A DNA stretch of 64,000 nt, taken from Nitrospirota bacterium. Lineage in GTDB: Bacteria > Nitrospirota > UBA9217. The stretch spans positions 128,001 to 192,000 of the forward strand of contig CAWBNQ010000002.1 of NCBI GenBank assembly GCA_963790205.1, read 5' to 3'. Below, one piece after another: positions 27,771 through 53,565 of the stretch. Below the pieces are notes generated by a model, which worked only from the letters and a program-made list of their open reading frames with translations, was not told where the DNA came from and made no database searches. Both the position numbers and the translations under genes were made by a program. The first letter of the stretch is position 1. The number at the start of each line of letters is the position of its first letter.

Positions 27771-27867
27771 GTATTCCATTGGCTGTAACCGGTTGGTCGA
27801 GGGACCGCAAGCCTTGTTTTTGTGGTATGATTACACTTATCCTGATCAGAGAGGAGGTGAAAACAGG

Positions 27868-27990
27868 ATGAAGAAGTCAGTGAGCAGGGACGCTCTCGTC
27901 AAAGAGGCTGCCTACTGGATGGCCATGAAGCAATCGGCGAAGCAGAATCCTGGTACGGTATGCCGCAAATGAAAGGGTTGAAAGAGCTAA
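27868..27990 (+). CDS. Putative selenocysteine-containing peptide (40 aa), candidate radical SAM substrate: MKKSVSRDALVKEAAYWMAMKQSAKQNPGTVCRKUKGUKS
   Basis: GAGGAGGTGA RBS; in-frame TGA at 27970 and 27979, each 3 codons on from Cys at 27961; TAA at 27988; SECIS-like hairpin immediately after. Confidence 0.65.
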
Positions 27991-28006
27991 GTTGCTGGTC
28001 AGCAAC
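27991..28006 (+). promoter_or_regulatory. Candidate bacterial SECIS element
   Basis: GTTGCT-GGTC-AGCAAC hairpin resembling the E. coli fdhF SECIS upper stem-loop GGTTGCAGGTCTGCACC. Confidence 0.6.
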
Positions 28007-28248
28007 GAAAACCGAAGCCGGCAGGTATGGCGCTCAGGGGTTGCCGTCAGGAAACGGCGCTGTTCGCCATATCTTCCGGCCTTCCTTGTACGTCATGAGG
28101 CCGGAAAGTTAAGAAATTGTGAAGTTGGAAGAAATTTTTACCTGTGCCATCTTCCATCTTTTTGCCTTCCCATAATTCTAAGCGCCTTCCCGCGGCCGGC
28201 GGGAGCGAAGAAGACCTGTTATCACGGCAGCATTCATGCGGCACGCTT

Positions 28249-29298
28249 ATGGCGACCAACAAGCCTTTTGAATTTTTTATCCAGTGGCATCTTACCGAAC
28301 GCTGCAACCTCCGGTGCAGACATTGCTACCAGGGCGAACGGAGCGCGGACGAGATGCCGCTCCCGGCAATACGAAACGTCATCATCGAAGTGTCGGATAT
28401 GGTCAAAGACTGGTCGGAATCCTACGGCGTCTCTTTTTCTCCAAGCATGAACGTTACCGGAGGAGAACCGTTCCTGAGAAACGACCTTCTCGAAATCCTC
28501 GGCGAAATCAAAAAGCAGGGATTTAAAATTTACCTTCTCACGAACGGCACTCTCGTGGACAAAAAGAGGGCCCGCATGCTCGCGGACCTCGGCGTGGACG
28601 GGGTCCAGGTGAGCATGGAAGGACCGGAGGATGTGCATGATGCCATCCGCGGCGCCGGCAGTTATTCCGCGTCCGCAGCCGGCGTTGAGCAGCTGGTAGA
28701 TGCCGGGATCGCGGTGACCCTGAATGTCACCGTCTCGAATATCAATGCGGGACAGGTGAACAGGATCATCACCTTCGCTTCCCATGCCGGAGTGAAGCGG
28801 GTGGGTTTTTCGCGACTGGTGCCTGCCGGCAGAGGGCGGGCGCTGCTGTCGCACATGCTCACCCGGGCGCAGGTCAAAGAACTCTACGAGGAGCTTCTTT
28901 CTCTGGAGCTCAAAGGCCTCGATGTTGTCACGGGCGATCCCGTGGCTGCGCAAATGAAAATGAAGGCCAAGAGGGATGCGGGAAGTACGGCAATCAGCGG
29001 CTGTGCCGCGGGTGTTTCGGGGTTGACGATACAGCCGAACGGCAACGTCACCCCCTGCAGGCGGTTGCCCCTTTCTCTCGGCAATGTACGGAGGGATTCT
29101 CTGCGTGAGATATGGGCCGCATCGCCCGTGCTTGAAGCGCTTCGGGACAGGAACAAATACAAGGGAAAATGCGGCGCCTGCACCCGGTGGGCGCGGTGCA
29201 GAGGCTGCAGGGCCATTGCCTACGCCTGGTCCCGTTCAAAGGGAGCTGACGATTTCCTTGCCGACGATCCGCAGTGTTTTATTGAGACAACAGCCTGA
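28249..29298 (+). CDS. Radical SAM/SPASM-domain protein (peptide-maturase type)
   Basis: CNLRCRHC, TGGEP, LTNGT; SPASM cysteines CAAG...PC...CGAC...CRGC...C. Confidence 0.9.
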   Translation: MATNKPFEFFIQWHLTERCNLRCRHCYQGERSADEMPLPAIRNVIIEVSDMVKDWSESYGVSFSPSMNVTGGEPFLRNDLLEILGEIKKQGFKIYLLTNGTLVDKKRARMLADLGVDGVQVSMEGPEDVHDAIRGAGSYSASAAGVEQLVDAGIAVTLNVTVSNINAGQVNRIITFASHAGVKRVGFSRLVPAGRGRALLSHMLTRAQVKELYEELLSLELKGLDVVTGDPVAAQMKMKAKRDAGSTAISGCAAGVSGLTIQPNGNVTPCRRLPLSLGNVRRDSLREIWAASPVLEALRDRNKYKGKCGACTRWARCRGCRAIAYAWSRSKGADDFLADDPQCFIETTA

Positions 29299-29314
29299 AG
29301 CCGAGGAGGTGACC

Positions 29315-29824
29315 ATGGATGCACTGACCGCGATTTTTTCACGAAGAAGTGTGCGGATCTATACGACGAAGCCGGTGCCCCACGACACGGTGACCGACCT
29401 CGTGCGGGCCGCCATGTATGCGCCCTCGGCCGGGAATGAGCGGCCCTGGCACTTTATCGTCCTCACGGACCGCGCGCTCCTCGACGAGATCCCGAAGTTT
29501 CATCCCTATGCCGCCATGCTGAAGCACGCGTCCACGGCCGTTCTCGTCTGCGGCGACGTTTCCCTCGAGAAACACAAGGGCTACTGGGTGCTCGACTGCG
29601 CCGCAGCCACACAGACCCTGCTGCTCGCGGCGCATTCCAAAGGGCTGGGCGCAGTCTGGTGCGGCGTCTATCCCACCGAAGACCGCGTGGAGAACCTTCG
29701 GAAACTGCTGGAGTTGCCTGAGCACGTGGTCCCCTTTTCTCTCATCCCCCTCGGCTTTCCCGCCGAGGAAAAAACGCCGGTGGAGCGATTCGACGCGTCG
29801 AGAATTCATGACAACCGGTGGTAA
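29315..29824 (+). CDS. Nitroreductase family flavoprotein
   Basis: RRSVR, APSAGNERPWHF, GLGAVWCG; GAGGAGG RBS, starts 16 bp after the rSAM stop. Confidence 0.9.
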   Translation: MDALTAIFSRRSVRIYTTKPVPHDTVTDLVRAAMYAPSAGNERPWHFIVLTDRALLDEIPKFHPYAAMLKHASTAVLVCGDVSLEKHKGYWVLDCAAATQTLLLAAHSKGLGAVWCGVYPTEDRVENLRKLLELPEHVVPFSLIPLGFPAEEKTPVERFDASRIHDNRW

Positions 29825-31692: not shown

Positions 31693-32733
31693 ATGAATTC
31701 AATAAAATCCGGAAACAGTACGTTAAGCGAAAGCCTCCATGTCGCGAAGGGACTGGGGATCGTTCTCGTCGTACTGGGCCATATCGACATGCCGGATATC
31801 CAGCCTCGCGTCTGGACCCTGGCCCGCGAGGTCATATATACATTTCATATGCCGCTTTTTATGGTCGTATCGGGTGTCCTTTTTGCGATGACGCAGAAGC
31901 CTCTTCTCTCCTGGCGCGGGTACGTCGCTTTTATCAGAAAGAAGGCGGGACGGCTGCTGTTGCCCTACATGAGCATAACGCTGATATTGTTGCTGCTGAA
32001 GCTCGCGGCGGCGAAATTCTTTACTCTTTCCAGTCCCGTGGCGGGCGACATTCTTTATTATATATTCCTCAATCCCCTGGGCGGTTTTTCGAACATACTC
32101 TGGTTTGTTTATACTCTGTTCGTGATCTTCCTTCTGTTCCCGCTGCTCAGGTTGCTGGCGCGAAATGAGCTTCTTCTCTTCGCGGTGACGATCCTCCTGT
32201 CCTTTCTGCCGTGGCCCCACGTATTTTGTCTTGACCTGGCCTTTCAATATCTGCCGTTCTTTACCGCGGGTTGTCTTCTGCACAAAATGTCCTTTCTCGA
32301 GGAGGTCCGCCTGTCAACAGGCATCATCCTGCCGCTCTGCCTCTATGTCTTTTTTTTCGCGATGCGAACACACGTCTCAAGCTTCGCCTTTGCATCACAA
32401 ATGATCTCGATCGCGCTCGGCGTGTCCGGCAGCCTTGTCTGCATCGCGGTTGCAGCGCTGATAGCCGGGCAGGCGCGCCCGGTGGAAAAGGTCGCGGCGC
32501 TGGGCAGGTACTCAAGCGGCATTTATCTTCTCCATACCATCTTCATGGGGGCGGCAAAGGTGTTGCTGACGCAGGTCATGCATCTGGGAACGTCGGAATT
32601 TGCAATGATCTCTCTTGTAATGATCTTTGCGGGCCTGGTCTTTCCGGTGGCCATGGAAAAATATATTATCAGGCGCTCGGCCGTCGCGTCGCGGTTCATC
32701 TTGGGAGTGGAAGCGCCGCCGCGGCATGATTGA
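31693..32733 (+). CDS. Acyltransferase family 3 membrane protein
   Basis: AKGLGIVLVVLGH, FHMPLF.VSG, LWF, IYLLH; many TM helices. Confidence 0.88.
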   Translation: MNSIKSGNSTLSESLHVAKGLGIVLVVLGHIDMPDIQPRVWTLAREVIYTFHMPLFMVVSGVLFAMTQKPLLSWRGYVAFIRKKAGRLLLPYMSITLILLLLKLAAAKFFTLSSPVAGDILYYIFLNPLGGFSNILWFVYTLFVIFLLFPLLRLLARNELLLFAVTILLSFLPWPHVFCLDLAFQYLPFFTAGCLLHKMSFLEEVRLSTGIILPLCLYVFFFAMRTHVSSFAFASQMISIALGVSGSLVCIAVAALIAGQARPVEKVAALGRYSSGIYLLHTIFMGAAKVLLTQVMHLGTSEFAMISLVMIFAGLVFPVAMEKYIIRRSAVASRFILGVEAPPRHD

Positions 32734-32860
32734 AGCCGGGTCGGTCATTATCTTTGTATCAAATACTACACTCTCTTCAGCAGAGACTCCAATTTTCCCC
32801 AGTCTGTTTTTTCTATCGTTTTATCCTTCTGATTTTATGATAGAATTTATCCAGCCGTTT

Positions 32861-32876
32861 TGGCGCGGTCATTGCT
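32861..32876 (+). promoter_or_regulatory. Sigma-54 (-24/-12) promoter for the cus operon
   Basis: TGGCGCGGTCATTGCT: GG-N10-GC, close to TGGCACG-N4-TTGCW; 23 bp before the cusC ATG. Confidence 0.7.
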
Positions 32877-32899
32877 ACTATATATCATGGAGGCATGCG

Positions 32900-34150
32900 A
32901 TGGGACGCGGGTTTTTTACATTCCTTTTTCTTCTATCCTTGGTCCTTATTACTCCGGCACTCGCCCGGGCCCAGGAAGTCGTCGTTACACTCAAAGACCT
33001 GGAGCAAGAGGCGCTTCAGAACAATCCCGAAATCGGGATGGCGGGGAAAAAAGCGGAGTCTGCCGAGGAAAAAAAGTCCCTGGCTGCTGCCATGCCCGAC
33101 CCCATGATCGGCTACATGATCCAGAACGTAGGGGGGCTCGGCACGTCCACGGTGGGCAAGGAAGAGATGAGCATGCAGGGCTTCGTGGTGACCCAGGAGG
33201 TTCCCTTCCCGGGAAAGCTCTCGACCAGGGGGAACGCAGCGCGAAAAGCGGCTGAGCGGGAGGAAGACAACAGCCGTGGAACGAAACTCAAAGTCCTGAG
33301 CGACCTCAGGAACGCCTACTACGATTACTTCCTGTCCTACCGGACCCTGGAAATCCTCGACCAGACAAAAGAGCTCATGAAGAACTTCGAACGCATTGCG
33401 GAGACGCGCTATGCCACGGGCCAGGGCCTGCAGCAGGACGTGCTCCGGGCCCAGCTCGAAGTGTCGATGCTGATCGAACGGATTTCCATGGAAGAGCAGA
33501 AGCTCGATACCGAGCGGGCCAGGGTCAACAGCCTCGTGGGCCGGGACCCGCGCTCGTCTTTGGGCAGGCCCGGTGACCAGTTCGCAACGGCCTTCCCTAT
33601 GGGGCTCGATCAGATGAGCGCGATGGCCCTGGAGCATTCTCCCATGCTTGAGGCCAAGAAGCGCATGGTGGAAGAGAACGAGTACGACCTCTCGCTGAGC
33701 AAACGGGAGTTTCTTCCCGACATGGTGGTCTCCGCGGGCCGGTTCACCAGGGGCGATTTCAAGGACGTATGGCAGGCAAGCGTCATGTTCAAGGTGCCGC
33801 TCTATTTCTGGAACAAGACCACGGGCGTAAAAGCGGCCCACGCGGACCTGAGCTCGGCCCGCTTCGACTATGAAGCGACGAAGCTGGCGATCCTCACCCG
33901 GGTCCAGGAGCTCTATTCCATGGCCAAGATGTCGGAGCACCACATCCACTTGTACGACTCCGGCATCATCCCCCAGGCCCGGCTGGCTCTCCAGTCCGCA
34001 ACGTCCAACTACCAGGTCGGCAAGATCGATTTCCTGTCGCTCCTCGAAAGCGAGACCGTGCTGCTCAAGTACCAGATCGCGTATGAGGAGCAGCTCGTGA
34101 ACCTGAACAAGACGATGGCCATGATGTCCGAAGTGACGGGAGAGCAGTAG
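32900..34150 (+). CDS. cusC: TolC-family outer membrane efflux protein (CusC-like)
   Basis: Signal peptide, two OEP helical repeats, PFPGKL, Met-rich; first gene of a heavy-metal RND operon. Confidence 0.82.
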   Translation: MGRGFFTFLFLLSLVLITPALARAQEVVVTLKDLEQEALQNNPEIGMAGKKAESAEEKKSLAAAMPDPMIGYMIQNVGGLGTSTVGKEEMSMQGFVVTQEVPFPGKLSTRGNAARKAAEREEDNSRGTKLKVLSDLRNAYYDYFLSYRTLEILDQTKELMKNFERIAETRYATGQGLQQDVLRAQLEVSMLIERISMEEQKLDTERARVNSLVGRDPRSSLGRPGDQFATAFPMGLDQMSAMALEHSPMLEAKKRMVEENEYDLSLSKREFLPDMVVSAGRFTRGDFKDVWQASVMFKVPLYFWNKTTGVKAAHADLSSARFDYEATKLAILTRVQELYSMAKMSEHHIHLYDSGIIPQARLALQSATSNYQVGKIDFLSLLESETVLLKYQIAYEEQLVNLNKTMAMMSEVTGEQ

Positions 34151-34229
34151 CAGTGCGGAGTGCGGAATGGGCAGATCAAAGGCAGGGCATCGTGGCTGTG
34201 GCCATCAGCCTGTGTGAAAGGTGTTTCCT

Positions 34230-35369
34230 ATGAAAATTTTCCCCAGAGTTTTTCAATCGTCAATCATCAATCTGCAATCTGCAATTGCGGCAGTATTGAT
34301 TCTTTTCTCCGCTGCCGCTGCCCAGGAGCCTGCTCCTCCCGGGGGGAACGCGAAGCAGGAAGCACCCGTGGTCGTGCTCAGCCCGGACAAGGTGCAGCTG
34401 ATCGGCGTGCGCACGGCCCTGGCCGGTTTCCGCTCCGTGGACCGGCAGGTGAGGACCGTGGGCAGGATCGAGCCGGACGAGACGAGGCTCGCCTTCGTAA
34501 ATACGAAGATCGGGGGATGGGTGAAGAAGCTTTTCGTGAGCTACACCGGGGACCGGGTCGAGAAGGGCCAGCCCCTGCTCTCGCTTTACAGCCCCGACCT
34601 GGTGACGGCCCAGGAAGAGTACCTCCTGGCGCTCAAGGCCGCGCAGCCGGCCCATAACCATAACCACAGCGATCAAAGCCTCGAAGAAGTCGAGACCTCG
34701 CGCAAGGACCTCCTCGAGTCGGCAAGGCGCAGGCTTCTGCTCTGGGACATCACGCCCGGGCAGATCGAAGAGCTCGAAAAAACCGGCAAGCCGCAGACCG
34801 ACATGATCATCACCGCCCCGCTGAGCGGGATCGTGCTCGATAAAATGGTGCTCGAGGGGACCTACATCACGCCGGGCATGAACCTCTACAAGGTCGCCGA
34901 CCTCTCGGACGTCTGGGTCATGGCTGAGGTCTACGAATCGGAAGTGCCGATCGTAAAGGTCGGCCAGCAGGCCCGGGTCACGCTTCCCTACTATTCCGGC
35001 GAGGCCATGACCGCCAGGGTGGACTTCATCTATCCCGTGCTCGACCCCGTGTCGCGGACCGTCAAGGTGCGGCTCAGGATGCATAATCCCGGTCTTGCGC
35101 TCAAGCCCGACATGTTCGGCAACGTGGAGATCATGGCCTCCTCGGGCCGGAGGCTCGTGATCCCCCGGGAAGCCGTGCTCTTCTCGGGCCTCCGCCAGCT
35201 CGTCTACGTCGAAAAGAAGCCCGGCGTGTACGAACAGCGCCAGGTGACCCTGGGGCTCCGGGGCGAGGATTATGTGGAAGTGCTCAAGGGGATCAAGAAG
35301 GGCGAGCGGGTGGTCACCTCGGGGAACTTCCTGATCGATTCGGAAAGCCAGCTGAGGACGGGGCAGTAG
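34230..35369 (+). CDS. cusB: RND efflux periplasmic adaptor (CusB-like)
   Basis: GDRVEKGQPL..LYSPDL..AQEEYL, ADLS.VWV.A.VYE, LKPDMF, GNFLIDSES. Confidence 0.9.
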   Translation: MKIFPRVFQSSIINLQSAIAAVLILFSAAAAQEPAPPGGNAKQEAPVVVLSPDKVQLIGVRTALAGFRSVDRQVRTVGRIEPDETRLAFVNTKIGGWVKKLFVSYTGDRVEKGQPLLSLYSPDLVTAQEEYLLALKAAQPAHNHNHSDQSLEEVETSRKDLLESARRRLLLWDITPGQIEELEKTGKPQTDMIITAPLSGIVLDKMVLEGTYITPGMNLYKVADLSDVWVMAEVYESEVPIVKVGQQARVTLPYYSGEAMTARVDFIYPVLDPVSRTVKVRLRMHNPGLALKPDMFGNVEIMASSGRRLVIPREAVLFSGLRQLVYVEKKPGVYEQRQVTLGLRGEDYVEVLKGIKKGERVVTSGNFLIDSESQLRTGQ

Positions 35370-35506
35370 AATTGCGATTTCGAATTGCGGATTGCGAATT
35401 AACGTCGAAAGGCGATGCGCAGAAAGATATTCAATCCGAAATCCGCACACCCTTCGCTCGCGCTTTGCACTCGTAATCGCTGGGTGCAGGCTCCGCAATC
35501 CGCAAT
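35369..35506. repeat. Degenerate heptamer repeat tract in mirrored arrangement
   Basis: AATTGCG ATTTCG AATTGCG GATTGCG on the left; AATCCGA AATCCGC and CTCCGCA ATCCGCA on the right. Confidence 0.65.
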
Positions 35507-35516
35507 GAGGTAATTC

Positions 35517-38500
35517 ATGTTATCCAAAATAATCGAACTGTCGGCGCGCAATAAATTTCTGATCTTCCTGGCCGTGCTGTTTCTCACGGTCTGGGGCGTC
35601 TGGGCGGTCTACCATACGCCGCTCGACGCGATCCCCGACCTTTCGGATGCCCAGGTGATCGTGTACACCGAATGGATGGGCCGGAGCCCGGACCTGGTGG
35701 AGGACCAGATCACCTATCCCATTGTCTCGACCATGCTTGCCGCGCCCAAGGTGCGCGTGGTGCGCGGCAAGTCCTTCCTCGGGATTTCCTTCGTGTACGT
35801 GATTTTCGAGGACGGCACGGACCTCTACTGGGCCAGAAGCCGGGTCCTCGAATACCTCCAGGGCGTGGCGGGAAAGCTCCCTGCCGGCGTTACCCCGGTG
35901 CTCGGGCCTGACGCCACCGGCGTGGGCTGGGGCTTCCAGTACGCGCTGACCGACGAGACGGGGACGCAGGACCTCTCGCAGCTCCGGTCCCTCCAGGACT
36001 GGACCCTCAAGTACGCCATCGAATCGGTGCCCGGAGTTTCCGAGGTGGCCTCGGTGGGCGGGTTCGTGAAGCAGTACCAGATCATCATCGACCCCAACCG
36101 GCTCCTGGCCTACAAGCTTTCGCTCATGAAGGTGATGGAGGCGGTCCGCAGAAGCAACCGCGACGTGGAAGGCCGCGTCGTCGAATGGTCCGGCAGGGAG
36201 TACATGGTCCGGGGCCGGGGTTACATCAGAGACCAATCGGACATCGAGAAGATCAGCGTGGGCACCGATGGCAGGGGCACGCCCATCCTGCTCCGCGACA
36301 TCGCCGAGGTCCAGCTCGGCCCGGAGATCAGGCGCGGGGCCGCCGACCTGGACGGCAAGGGCGAGGCCGTGGGCGGCATCGTGGTGGTCCGGTTCGGCGA
36401 GAACGTCCTCTCGGTCATCGACCGGGTGAAGCAGAAGCTCGCCGAACTGGCGCCGACCCTGCCCAAGGGCGTCAAGATCGTCACGACCTACGACCGGTCG
36501 GAGCTCATCCACCGTTCCGTGGACACGCTCAAGGCGGAGATCATCAAGCTCGGCCTGGCCGTGAGCGTCGTGTGCCTCGTGTTCCTGTTCCATCTGCCGA
36601 GCGCCTTCGTGGTGATCCTGACGCTCCCGATCGCGATCCTCATCTCCTTCATCTGCATGTACTATCTCGGGATCAGCTCGAATATCATGAGCCTTTCAGG
36701 GATAGCCATCGCCATCGGCGCCATGGTGGACGCCTCGATCATCATGGTCGAGAACGCACACAAGAAGCTCGAAGACTGGGAGCGGACCGGCAGGGCGCAT
36801 GGGTCCCGGGTGGACGTGGTCATCGACGCAGCCAAGGAAGTCGGTCCATCGCTGTTCTTTTCCCTTTTGGTCATCACCGTCGGGTTCCTGCCCGTTTTTA
36901 CGCTCGAAGAGCAGGCAGGCAGGCTCTTCAAGCCCCTGGCCTACACCAAGACTTTTTCCATGCTCTTTGCGAGCTTCCTCGCCATCACACTCACGCCGGT
37001 GCTCATGACGATCTTCATCAAGGGGAAGATCCGGCACGAGGACGACAACCCCGTGAGCCATTTCCTGATCAGGCTCTACCACCCGGTGGCCGAGTTTGCG
37101 CTCCGGTTCCGCAAGCTCGTGATCATCGCGGCGATCGTCATCGTGGCCGTCACCGTCGTCCCCTTCACCGAGCTGGGCTCGGAGTTCATGCCGCCGCTCT
37201 ATGAAGGCACGCTCCTGTTCATGCCCTCGGCTCTTCCCGGGGCCTCGATCACCACCATGTCCGATGTGCTCCAGGCCGAGGACCGGATCATGAAGCAGTT
37301 CCCCGAGGTGGAGCGGGTCTTCGGCAAGGCGGGCCGCGCCGAGACGGCCACGGACCCGGCGCCCCTCGAAATGATCGAGACGAACGTGATCCTCAAGCCC
37401 GAGAGCCAGTGGCGGCCCCGGTTCAAGAAGTGGGAGGACCTGCGGGACGAGATGGATACGGCCCTCACGATCCCCGGCGTGGCCAACACCTGGACCATGC
37501 CGATCATCGGCAGGATCGACATGCTCGCTACGGGCATCAAGACGCCCCTGGGCCTCAAGATCTTCGGGCCCCATCTGGACGAGATCGAGCGGATCGGGCT
37601 GGACGTGGAGAAGACGCTCAAGGACGTGCCGGGCACGCGGCTGGCCTACGCCGAGCGGGCCAACACGGGCTATTTCCTCGACTTTACGGTGAACCGCGAC
37701 GAGATCAGCCGCTACAACCTCGCTGTCGAGGACGTGCAGGAAGTGATCGAGTCGGCCATCGGCGGCATGAACCTGACGACCACGGTGGAAGGCCGCGAGC
37801 GCTATCCCGTGAACATCCGCTACGGCAGGGAGCTGCGGGACGACATCGAGAAGCTGAAGCGGGTGCTCGTCCCGGTCATGGACGGCGCCCAGGTGCCCGC
37901 TGGGGCAGCTCGCCGACATTAGGATAGTGCGCGGCCCGGGCATGGTCCAGAGCGAGGGCGGGAGGCTCACGGCGACGGTCACGCTCAATATCGAAGGGAG
38001 CGACTTCGGCGGCTACGTGAAGCGCGCCCAGCAGGCGATCGCCGAAAAGGTGAAGGTGCCGGCAGGCTACCAGGTCCAGTGGTCGGGCCAGTACGAGTAC
38101 ATGGAGAACGTGAAGGCAAAGCTCCTCTACGTTATCCCGCTCACGCTTCTCATCATCGTGGTGCTCATTTACCTCAACACGAACTCATGGCTCAAGACCG
38201 CGATCGTGCTTTTGGCAGTTCCCTTCTCGCTCGTGGGCACGGTCTGGCTCCTCTACTTCCTCGGCTACCACATGAGCATCGCGGTCTGGGTCGGCGTGAT
38301 CGCCCTGGCCGGGCTCGATGCGGAGACCGGCATCGTGATGCTCCTCTACCTCGACCTGTCCTATAACCGCTGGCACCAGGAGGGAAGGATTAATTCGCTC
38401 CGGGACATCGAGGACTCGGTCATGGAAGGGGCGGTGAAACGCATCCGTCCCAAGATCATGACCGTGTCGGTGATCCTGGCGGGCCTGGTGCCGATCCTGT

Positions 38501-38658
38501 TCTCCACCGGGACGGGCGCGGACGTGATGAAACGCATCGCCGCGCCCATGGTCGGCGGCGTGGTCACGTCGACCATCCTCGAACTCGTCATCTATCCGGC
38601 GATCTATGTGATCTGGAAGGAGAGGGAACTGTTAAAGGCCGAAAGGCGCGAGGGGTAA
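35517..38658 (+). pseudogene. cusA: CusA/CzcA heavy-metal RND permease, split by a +1 frameshift at about 37896-37898 (real lesion or assembly error)
   Basis: LDAIPDLSD.QVI, GPDATGVGW, GSEFMPPL, TDPAPLEM; removing one C from GTG CCC GCT restores QVPLGQLADIRIVRGPG and joins the 37927 ORF (RIRPKIMT...RIAAPMVGG). Confidence 0.88.
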
Positions 38659-53169: not shown

Positions 53170-53565
53170 ATGAAAGTCATAGCGATAAAAGGCATGGTTC
53201 TCTTTTTTCTTCTCGCGGCCGGCGCCGTGTCGGCCCGGGAGCTGAAAGGTCCCAGAATAGAGGTGAAGGAGGAGCAGTACAGCATGGGAAGCGTCGCGCA
53301 GGGGAAACAGGCCACGCACGTGTTCGAGGTCAGGAACGCGGGGACCGAACCCCTGGTTATCGACAGCCTTAAACCTTCCTGAGGGTGCACCGCTGCGGTG
53401 ATTAGTTCTAATCGCCTGGAACCGGGGAGCGTGGGACAGATCAAAGTCACGGTGGATACGGACGGAAGAGTCGGACGCCTCGAAAAATATATTGCTGTCT
53501 ATTCGAATGACCGGACAACTCCGGTGCTCACGCTTACGGTGACCCTGGATATTGTACAAAAGTGA
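53170..53565 (+). CDS. DUF1573-like Ig-fold exported protein, putative selenoprotein (S-U-G-C, TGA at 53380)
   Basis: Frame continues past the TGA as GCTAAVISSNRLEPGSVGQIKVTVDT...VYSND; Cys homologues carry S-C-G-C here; SECIS-like hairpin at 53397-53416. Confidence 0.78.
53397..53416 (+). promoter_or_regulatory. Candidate bacterial SECIS element
   Basis: GGTGATTA-GTTC-TAATCGCC; loop starts with GT, 22 nt after the TGA. Confidence 0.6.

Follow-up and report, generated by a model that had tools for sequence, protein, structure and literature searches.

A candidate selenopeptide system with a radical SAM/SPASM enzyme in a Nitrospirota bacterium

The pair SbtA/SbtM, a "selenobacteriocin" (TIGR04081) and its maturase (TIGR04082), has been called the first selenocysteine (Sec)-containing ribosomally produced, posttranslationally modified peptide (RiPP) made by a radical S-adenosylmethionine (SAM) enzyme (PMC9204691). 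A 2026 table of 119 prokaryotic selenoprotein families, in which those of Haft and Tolstoy 2025 appear, lists the SbtA type as the sole peptide of this kind (PMC13188914). The hallmark of the pair is thio(seleno)oxazole formation at Gly-Cys/Sec, with a loss of 4 Da per site, a new band near 304 nm, and alkylation that is retained; SbtM is described as performing both oxidations, and its proposed mechanism places the chalcogen on an auxiliary cluster (PMC9204691). The enzymes CteB, PapB, and Tte1186 have Cys peptides as natural substrates; on Sec-substituted peptides, PapB and Tte1186 form selenoethers, with Sec binding auxiliary cluster I (AuxI) (PMC10177961). Here, we describe a gene for a 40-residue peptide with two in-frame TGA codons, followed by a radical SAM/SPASM enzyme gene, in a stretch of 64,000 nucleotides (nt) from a Nitrospirota bacterium (GenBank assembly GCA_963790205.1, contig CAWBNQ010000002.1, positions 128,001 to 192,000 of the forward strand), referred to as the window. 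Comparative sequence analysis establishes a gene with two Sec codons, a single selenocysteine insertion sequence (SECIS) 3' of its stop codon, and a coinherited enzyme. The two genes likely form a selenium RiPP-type system, in which the peptide would be a precursor modified by the enzyme.

Like SbtA/SbtM, the locus combines a Sec precursor and its SECIS with a radical SAM/SPASM enzyme, and at least two Sec residues are found in both. However, its core is CxxUxxU with interspersed lysines instead of the GGUG/SGUG motif of SbtA (PMC9204691, PMC13188914), and its hosts are Nitrospirota and Syntrophorhabdus-type anaerobes instead of Geobacter. None of 22 family peptides matched TIGR04081 at E values up to 10 (a genome search with this model was also empty, as was its positive control), and the enzyme reached 136.4 bits against the TIGR04082 cut-off of 350, covering only profile positions 199 to 516 and leaving 1 to 198 unmatched. 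This is in agreement with the first-pass annotation of this DNA, which did not recognize the peptide as SbtA and suggested a distinct family. The enzyme shares with CteB, PapB, and Tte1186 a near-identical spacing of the cysteines that would make up a three-Cys AuxI and a four-Cys AuxII (PMC10177961) but, unlike them, lacks an N-terminal RiPP recognition element (RRE), and the peptide core has no Asp/Thr acceptor motif. The selenopeptide family is absent from the 119-family table (PMC13188914, Table 1), and our literature searches, which covered little subscription content, returned no description of a CxxUxxU family. It represents a second, unrelated, and common Sec peptide family with a radical SAM partner, present in 72 of the 401 genomes searched from the host's phylum, and probably points to an uncatalogued family of Se-containing modified peptides in anaerobic bacteria.

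Reading of the two TGA codons

The peptide comprises a Lys-rich leader with the motif E13-A-x-[YF]-W17 and a core, C32-x-K-U35-K-x-U38-K-S, that ends the window copy as C-R-K-U-K-G-U-K-S, with the Cys codon TGC at 27961 (the features are listed in Table 1). The ribosome-binding site, the ATG, and this frame with its two TGAs were found exactly as the first-pass annotation had described them. E13 and W17 are invariant in the peptide alignment, C32 is conserved too, and the core lysines are nearly invariant in 105 distinct homologous loci (K34 in 101, K36 in 98, and K39 in 104). Profile scans assigned the peptide to no Pfam or NCBIfam family, and a scan of 22 homologues gave stray matches in two only, to QmoC and NifS.

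We searched 401 genomes of the host's phylum and 351 genomes of a second phylum (that of genome G402) with a peptide profile, all stop codons being read through. The profile matched in 73 genomes of the former (72 after a false match in G380 had been dropped) and in 21 of the latter. Two TGAs were seen in 73 of 76 and in 20 of 21 match rows, respectively, while two rows had one TGA (their alignment ends at residue 37); in the remaining two, the false match and a fragment at a contig end, there was none. TAA or TAG occupied these positions in none of the 97 rows. Similarly, both positions were TGA in 105/105 distinct loci; the pattern that defined this set, which leaves out the weak copies L037 and L118, admitted TGC, TGT, and TGA but not TAA or TAG, so that it tests for Cys forms and the stop-blind genome searches test for other stops. 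The codon after K-S was TAA in 49 loci, TGA in 37, TAG in 11, and a sense codon in 8. Because the TGAs are kept while the true stop swaps between TAA, TGA, and TAG, both UGAs are almost certainly read as Sec, as had been proposed from the window alone. From the first TGA to the end of the frame, the remaining codons differ mainly by third-position (synonymous) changes, and the final Ser after the second UGA is encoded by AGY in 83 loci and by TCN in 9.

The host genome encodes selA, selB, a Sec-containing selD, and two tRNA-Sec genes, in line with the Sec machinery expected from a second recoded gene at 53170 of the window, which indeed has an in-frame TGA and belongs to a listed selenoprotein family. 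The tRNA-Sec genes are located at C1:656899-656993 and C8:121701-121799 of the host assembly (G000); a Sec formate dehydrogenase-like gene lies about 2 kb from one of them, and selB/selA lie about 6 kb from the other. Across the host's phylum, selA was found in 66 of the 72 peptide genomes versus 191 of 401 overall, a count in which related genomes are not independent.

A SECIS-like hairpin after the TAA had also been noted in the first-pass annotation, and covariation across homologues supports it. In 32 aligned loci, 86% of the stem cells were paired and 19 changes affected both sides; none of 500 shuffles and no slid control matched these figures, which are inflated by kinship among the sequences. 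The pair next to the loop, scored in 104 of 105 loci by a count that searched for a stem and is thus biased towards pairing, was C-G in 55, U-A in 39, A-U in 6, U-G in 2, and U-U in 2. By folding energy alone, the SECIS did not rise above chance (z about 0 in three short windows). A like hairpin, GC-C-GGUCU-GGC, is found 18 nt past the UGA of two host genes that we take to be formate dehydrogenase-like from their CARx-U-H motif. In the 104 loci, the loop GG is located 15 to 18 nt past the second UGA in 100 (mode, 16) and about 25 nt past the first; loop start and distance agree with the described consensus, a G at the loop start 16 to 37 nt past the UGA (PMC13188914). Since six bases alone lie between the UGAs, one SECIS must serve both. 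Where a third TGA is present, its distance to the loop is about 7 nt, and it acts as a stop. In animals, a single SECIS serves two close UGAs of SelL (PMC4989117), and our literature search for a bacterial case returned this paper only.

Several observations speak against reading both codons as Sec. No Cys orthologue of the kind that the first-pass annotation proposed to look for was seen in the 97 match rows or among the 120 of 183 protein matches listed, the only similar core with cysteines being that of a different peptide family (see below). selA is missing from six peptide genomes; among the five of these that were checked, three have a tRNA-Sec and one has selB above cut-off, and two (86 to 89% complete) have neither. 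In the window copy, 15 nt separate the second UGA from the loop, one fewer than the consensus minimum, and 24 nt separate the first. Finally, 120/120 protein-database entries among the matches listed terminate at the first TGA. The missing Cys forms, the two genomes without Sec machinery, and these database entries would also fit a peptide that stops at the first TGA (34 residues, one Cys), with the conserved bases behind it forming a noncoding RNA motif. A plain stop, however, would swap to TAA or TAG as the real stop does; moreover, conservation behind the first TGA is at the codon level, a SECIS stands at the right distance, and the peptide is linked to selA. The sole TAA at the first-TGA position belongs to a decayed copy ahead of an enzyme gene in G287 (L137:160-300), which has lost its Cys codon, first TGA, start, and SECIS and whose genome carries an intact copy on another contig. 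We consider a 34-residue product highly improbable; the two-Sec reading, as the first-pass annotation had foreseen, implies that gene callers cut the peptide short, and the family is invisible in databases because its members end at the first TGA.

Partnership of peptide and enzyme

Seven SPASM cysteines (C252, C270, C308, C311, C317, C320, and C343) are all invariant in the enzyme alignment. Judged by spacing against CteB (as in PMC10177961), C252, C270, and C320 would ligate AuxI, leaving a free site, and C308, C311, C317, and C343 would ligate AuxII. A domain scan found no RRE in the enzyme, and a search of the host genome, whose control matched 4 of 14, found no PqqD/RRE.

We then compared the distributions of both genes by independent searches. 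In the host's phylum, the enzyme (at least 490 bits) was found in 73 of 401 genomes, the peptide in 72, and both in 71, the sequence of G186 ending 65 nt past the peptide; among 351 genomes of the second phylum, enzyme (at least 320 bits; three are partial) and peptide were found in exactly the same 21. An enzyme-only search yielded 39 loci, including several genomes fetched twice: as the first-pass annotation had led us to expect, 36 carry a peptide upstream, which a contig end truncates in one of them, and three (L011, L020, and L033) do not. The enzyme starts within 800 nt of the peptide in 95 of 105 loci. Where the two are unlinked, the enzyme was located on another contig in 5/5 genomes tested. 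The enzyme is very likely a dedicated partner that is inherited with the peptide.

Complex prediction for enzyme and peptide gave a score of 0.87, the best of three controls reaching 0.02; the mark applied to this score is one that 116 of 157 solved complexes reach, as do 2 of 215 mismatched pairs. The runs agreed in at least 89% of contacts, with a partner pLDDT of at least 78. In the model, leader residues E13 and W17 touch W55, R286, and W289, which are invariant in the enzyme, and the interface includes peptide residues 26 to 34 and enzyme residues C252 and C320. The prediction lends plausibility to a docking of the leader on an enzyme that has no RRE.

The pairing of precursor and maturase also has points to its disadvantage. 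The enzyme occurs without a peptide, by profile or motif search, in G006 (100% complete), G143, G405, and G755. The complex prediction used our own alignments and, for the peptide, just the 34 residues that precede the first TGA, and since SPASM-peptide complexes have already been solved (SuiB-SuiA and ChlB-ChlA), the high score may rest on likeness. In addition, no peptide maturase of known chemistry is among the top curated matches of the enzyme, which are GeoRSP and the heme enzymes AhbD/NirJ2. As for G143, GC content falls from about 70% to 50% just ahead of its 5'-truncated enzyme gene (L281:3500-4000, C3), which abuts foreign high-GC DNA and probably lies at a chimeric assembly junction.

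Two rare codons and then a hairpin precede the enzyme gene, and the peptide gene could also be imagined as a selenium-sensing leader. Ribosome passage over its two UGAs would control the enzyme gene by setting the downstream hairpin, an effect in cis, and the peptide would have no role of its own. The SECIS overlapping or abutting the enzyme start in 10 loci would suit such a device (L034-L036, L038, L102, L105, L114, L116, L177, and L178; here, the enzyme starts at the peptide's end, the SECIS overlaps its first codons, and there is no spacer hairpin). We give this idea hardly any credence: E13, W17, and C32 are conserved as amino acids, peptide and enzyme are on different contigs in all five genomes tested, and binding is predicted. 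A secondary regulatory effect of the peptide gene on the enzyme gene may nevertheless exist.

Related enzymes, possible chemistry, and role

The best curated profile matches of the enzyme were ACGX (TIGR04340), GeoRSP (TIGR04303), and AhbD/NirJ2, at 166 to 185 bits versus cut-offs of 400 to 500. These enzymes have different partners; ACGX also clusters near the window enzyme by language-model features. Curated maturase models stayed below cut-off (PapB, 85.9/340; StsB, 114.8/625; AlbA, 80.2/850). The nearest folds are those of the peptide-modifying SPASM enzymes PqqE, anSME, SuiB, and SkfB. The enzyme described in PMC13692751 is different and bears an RRE.

Among related enzymes, we found an uncurated system of radical SAM/SPASM enzyme, PqqD, and a peptide with a YxxP leader and a C-terminal CxxCxxCxxC (Cys4) motif (L184:1480-2910, L186, and L193-L272), to which no NCBIfam or Pfam family corresponds. 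The Cys4 peptide is represented by 42 database proteins and at least 430 metagenome stretches, of which 80 were kept; the enzyme is present in 42 and PqqD in 47 of 82 peptide loci, many contigs being short (31 of 48 with 1.5 kb on one side). Numerous copies lack a neighbouring enzyme. The Cys4 core, V-C-[KR]-Q-C-S-[SG]-C-H, aligns with V-C-[HR]-K-U-K-[GS]-U-K of the selenopeptide, and its enzymes, when whole, score 239 to 301 bits on the selenopeptide-enzyme family profile. The peptide profiles, however, match weakly (probability 34.7%, 13 core columns), and we rejected the Cys4 family as a direct orthologue, as its enzymes form a separate clade (30 to 38% identity, quick trees) and it has another leader and a separate PqqD; both points detract from our reading of the selenopeptide. 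Ten other related enzymes (L273-L280, L285, and L185) are preceded by membrane proteins with Gly/Ser-rich tails, CxxC repeats, and GGCGGCGGGGD-like ends; 4/4 of those scanned were TIGR04222. In quick trees, neither the Cys4 nor the TIGR04222 enzyme clade is a sister of the Sec family, and both serve as analogies. Another related clade (L187-L190 and L192; about 229 to 236 bits) has no Cys-rich neighbour within 1.5 kb. Two divergent members of the enzyme family in Thermodesulfobium (clusters P0127 and P0129) have consecutive accession numbers, and the annotated N terminus of P0127 resembles the end of the peptide in another frame.

In the model, the leader helix (E13 and W17) would be held between a family-specific inserted helix (W55 and Y59) and the SPASM helix (R286, W289, and A290), and the bound core would lie along the face bearing the AuxI ligands C252 and C320. 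A core Cys or Sec could then bind the free iron of AuxI, and the 5'-deoxyadenosyl radical would abstract a hydrogen, the chalcogen residues being oxidized one after another. SbtM-like and thioether-type routes begin alike, with the chalcogen at the auxiliary cluster. We tentatively rank SbtM-like thio/seleno-oxazoles first, if slightly, because, by analogy, related enzymes adjoin substrates that share solely a Cys at every third residue. Thioether/selenoether cross-links come second, as a possible but rather doubtful outcome, for which the near-invariant core lysines could be alternative acceptors; another Cys/Sec oxidation is third and improbable.

We examined the 45 most frequent neighbour clusters in 92 loci by sequence and by 14 Pfam scans; no transporter, peptidase, or YcaO cluster recurs among them, nor is a signal peptide conserved in the system; hence, the product is most likely cytoplasmic. 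As a guess at its role, it could possibly remain there as a soft-metal or redox ligand offering one S and two Se. A metallophore function is described for thiooxazole peptides that other enzymes make (PMC11626156, PMC13097082). In its boldest form, which we regard as unlikely as a whole, our proposal is an obligately Se-dependent RiPP class: a SECIS in the 3' untranslated region would decode two UGAs, an RRE-free enzyme would form three oxidized chalcogen heterocycles (one S, two Se), and the product would serve inside the cells of syntrophs and anaerobic Nitrospirota as a miniature redox cofactor or soft-metal chelator; the class would be the selenium branch of a broad, uncharacterized enzyme clade that acts on Cys-every-third motifs. 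Of the leader-plus-core RiPP precursor announced in the first-pass annotation, the gene, its Sec residues, and the dedicated radical SAM/SPASM partner stand, and the chemical modification is probable.

The strict one-to-one inheritance and the tight predicted docking fit equally well with a selenopeptide that is a small subunit or cofactor-carrying partner, its CxxUxxU ligating a metal or an Fe-S cluster or capping AuxI, and an enzyme whose substrate is a small molecule. The CxxUxxU spacing is that of three ferredoxin-type ligands. The nearly invariant core, the heme-pathway enzymes among the best curated matches, and the lack of export or processing genes would suit such a subunit. On the other hand, the strong ribosome-binding site, the peptide gene's probable own promoter, and the hairpin ahead of the enzyme gene suggest an excess of peptide, the layout is one of leader plus core, some genomes have extra peptide copies (three in G343), and PqqD and Cys-rich tails adjoin related enzymes. 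We judge the subunit explanation unlikely and favor a modified precursor. In G343, one of the three copies (L112, L113, and L118) adjoins the enzyme, and one has a degraded leader start.

The pair is directly testable with a 40-residue synthetic peptide and one 349-residue enzyme, and a cultured host, Syntrophorhabdus aromaticivorans (L028), carries it. It offers a natural test case for Se binding at an auxiliary cluster, for RRE-free leader recognition, and for one SECIS serving two UGAs from outside the coding region.

Neighbouring genes and local elements

Table 1. Features of the locus and of a second Sec-recoded gene, in window coordinates
Feature	Position	Strand	Remarks
Extended -10 type promoter element (TG-G-TATGAT)	27823..27831	+	Putative, from sequence; not called by consensus scan
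Ribosome-binding site GAGGAGGTGA	27851..27860	+	From sequence
40-residue selenopeptide gene	27868..27990	+	ATG 27868; stop TAA 27988; TGA read as U
First Sec codon (U35), TGA	27970..27972	+	24 nt ahead of SECIS loop
Second Sec codon (U38), TGA	27979..27981	+	15 nt ahead of SECIS loop
Bacterial SECIS hairpin GUUGC-U-GGUC-A-GCAAC	27991..28006	+	6 bp, GGUC loop; entirely 3' of stop; covariation
Long hairpin between precursor and enzyme gene	28014..28084	+	z -4.2; not called terminator
349-residue radical SAM/SPASM enzyme	28249..29298	+	CxxxCxxC at 19-26; seven SPASM Cys; no RRE
169-residue nitroreductase-family flavoprotein gene	29315..29824	+	16-nt gap to enzyme gene; own ribosome-binding site
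DUF1573 protein gene	53170-53565	+	In-frame TGA at 53380; UGC motif; N-terminal signal-like stretch; listed selenoprotein family

Profile scans confirmed both downstream genes of the first-pass annotation, the radical SAM/SPASM gene and a closely coupled nitroreductase gene, but did not bear out its view that the latter belongs to the system. The short gap, the nitroreductase gene's own ribosome-binding site, and its presence somewhere in 16 of the 89 fetched loci with enough sequence could suggest a three-gene azole pathway in which it oxidizes an azoline. However, it is the gene immediately behind the enzyme in no more than 6 of 89 loci, and the gene at this place varies (YceI, SDR epimerase, PEMT-like, or Pal). 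Orthologues with 72 to 73% identity are present in 3/5 peptide-less relatives, whereas none was found with the window query in 3/5 peptide genomes; no azole-dehydrogenase model is among its 11 NCBIfam matches; and SbtM is described as doing both oxidations itself (PMC9204691). We consider the azole pathway very unlikely and membership in the system equally so; the nitroreductase is probably a syntenic passenger of the peptide-enzyme pair.

The peptide gene has a probable promoter of its own, judged from its sequence, and the commonest 7-mers upstream of 94 homologues are TTGACA and TGnTATnAT words. No common operator palindrome was found upstream of these homologues, so that an inducer cannot be named. 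An AGGAGG-type ribosome-binding site is present in 94 of 105 loci and GGGGGTG in most others. The long spacer hairpin is probably an mRNA-stabilizing or partial terminator element; z was below -2 (mononucleotide shuffles) in 73 of 85 homologous spacers. An Rfam scan returned two tRNAs alone in the window and tRNAs alone in nine loci with unlinked peptides, and no riboswitch. One RNA run contained 0.06 of the sequence words, and its contigs, nearly all below 95% identity, span the peptide gene, one reaching into the enzyme gene; as they cannot show transcription or its level, we did not use them as evidence.

Metal-related neighbours (NRAMP, ABC ATPase, outer-membrane efflux, YceI, and pyridine nucleotide-disulphide oxidoreductase) were discarded as too patchy, each being present in 3 to 17 of 92 loci. 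Homologues of the window's efflux protein (PF02321) lie near the peptide in 3 of 92 loci only. In the window, judging from translations, this outer-membrane efflux protein is encoded with a membrane-fusion protein and a Cus/Czc-type RND pump about 3 kb downstream (32627-38658, plus strand).

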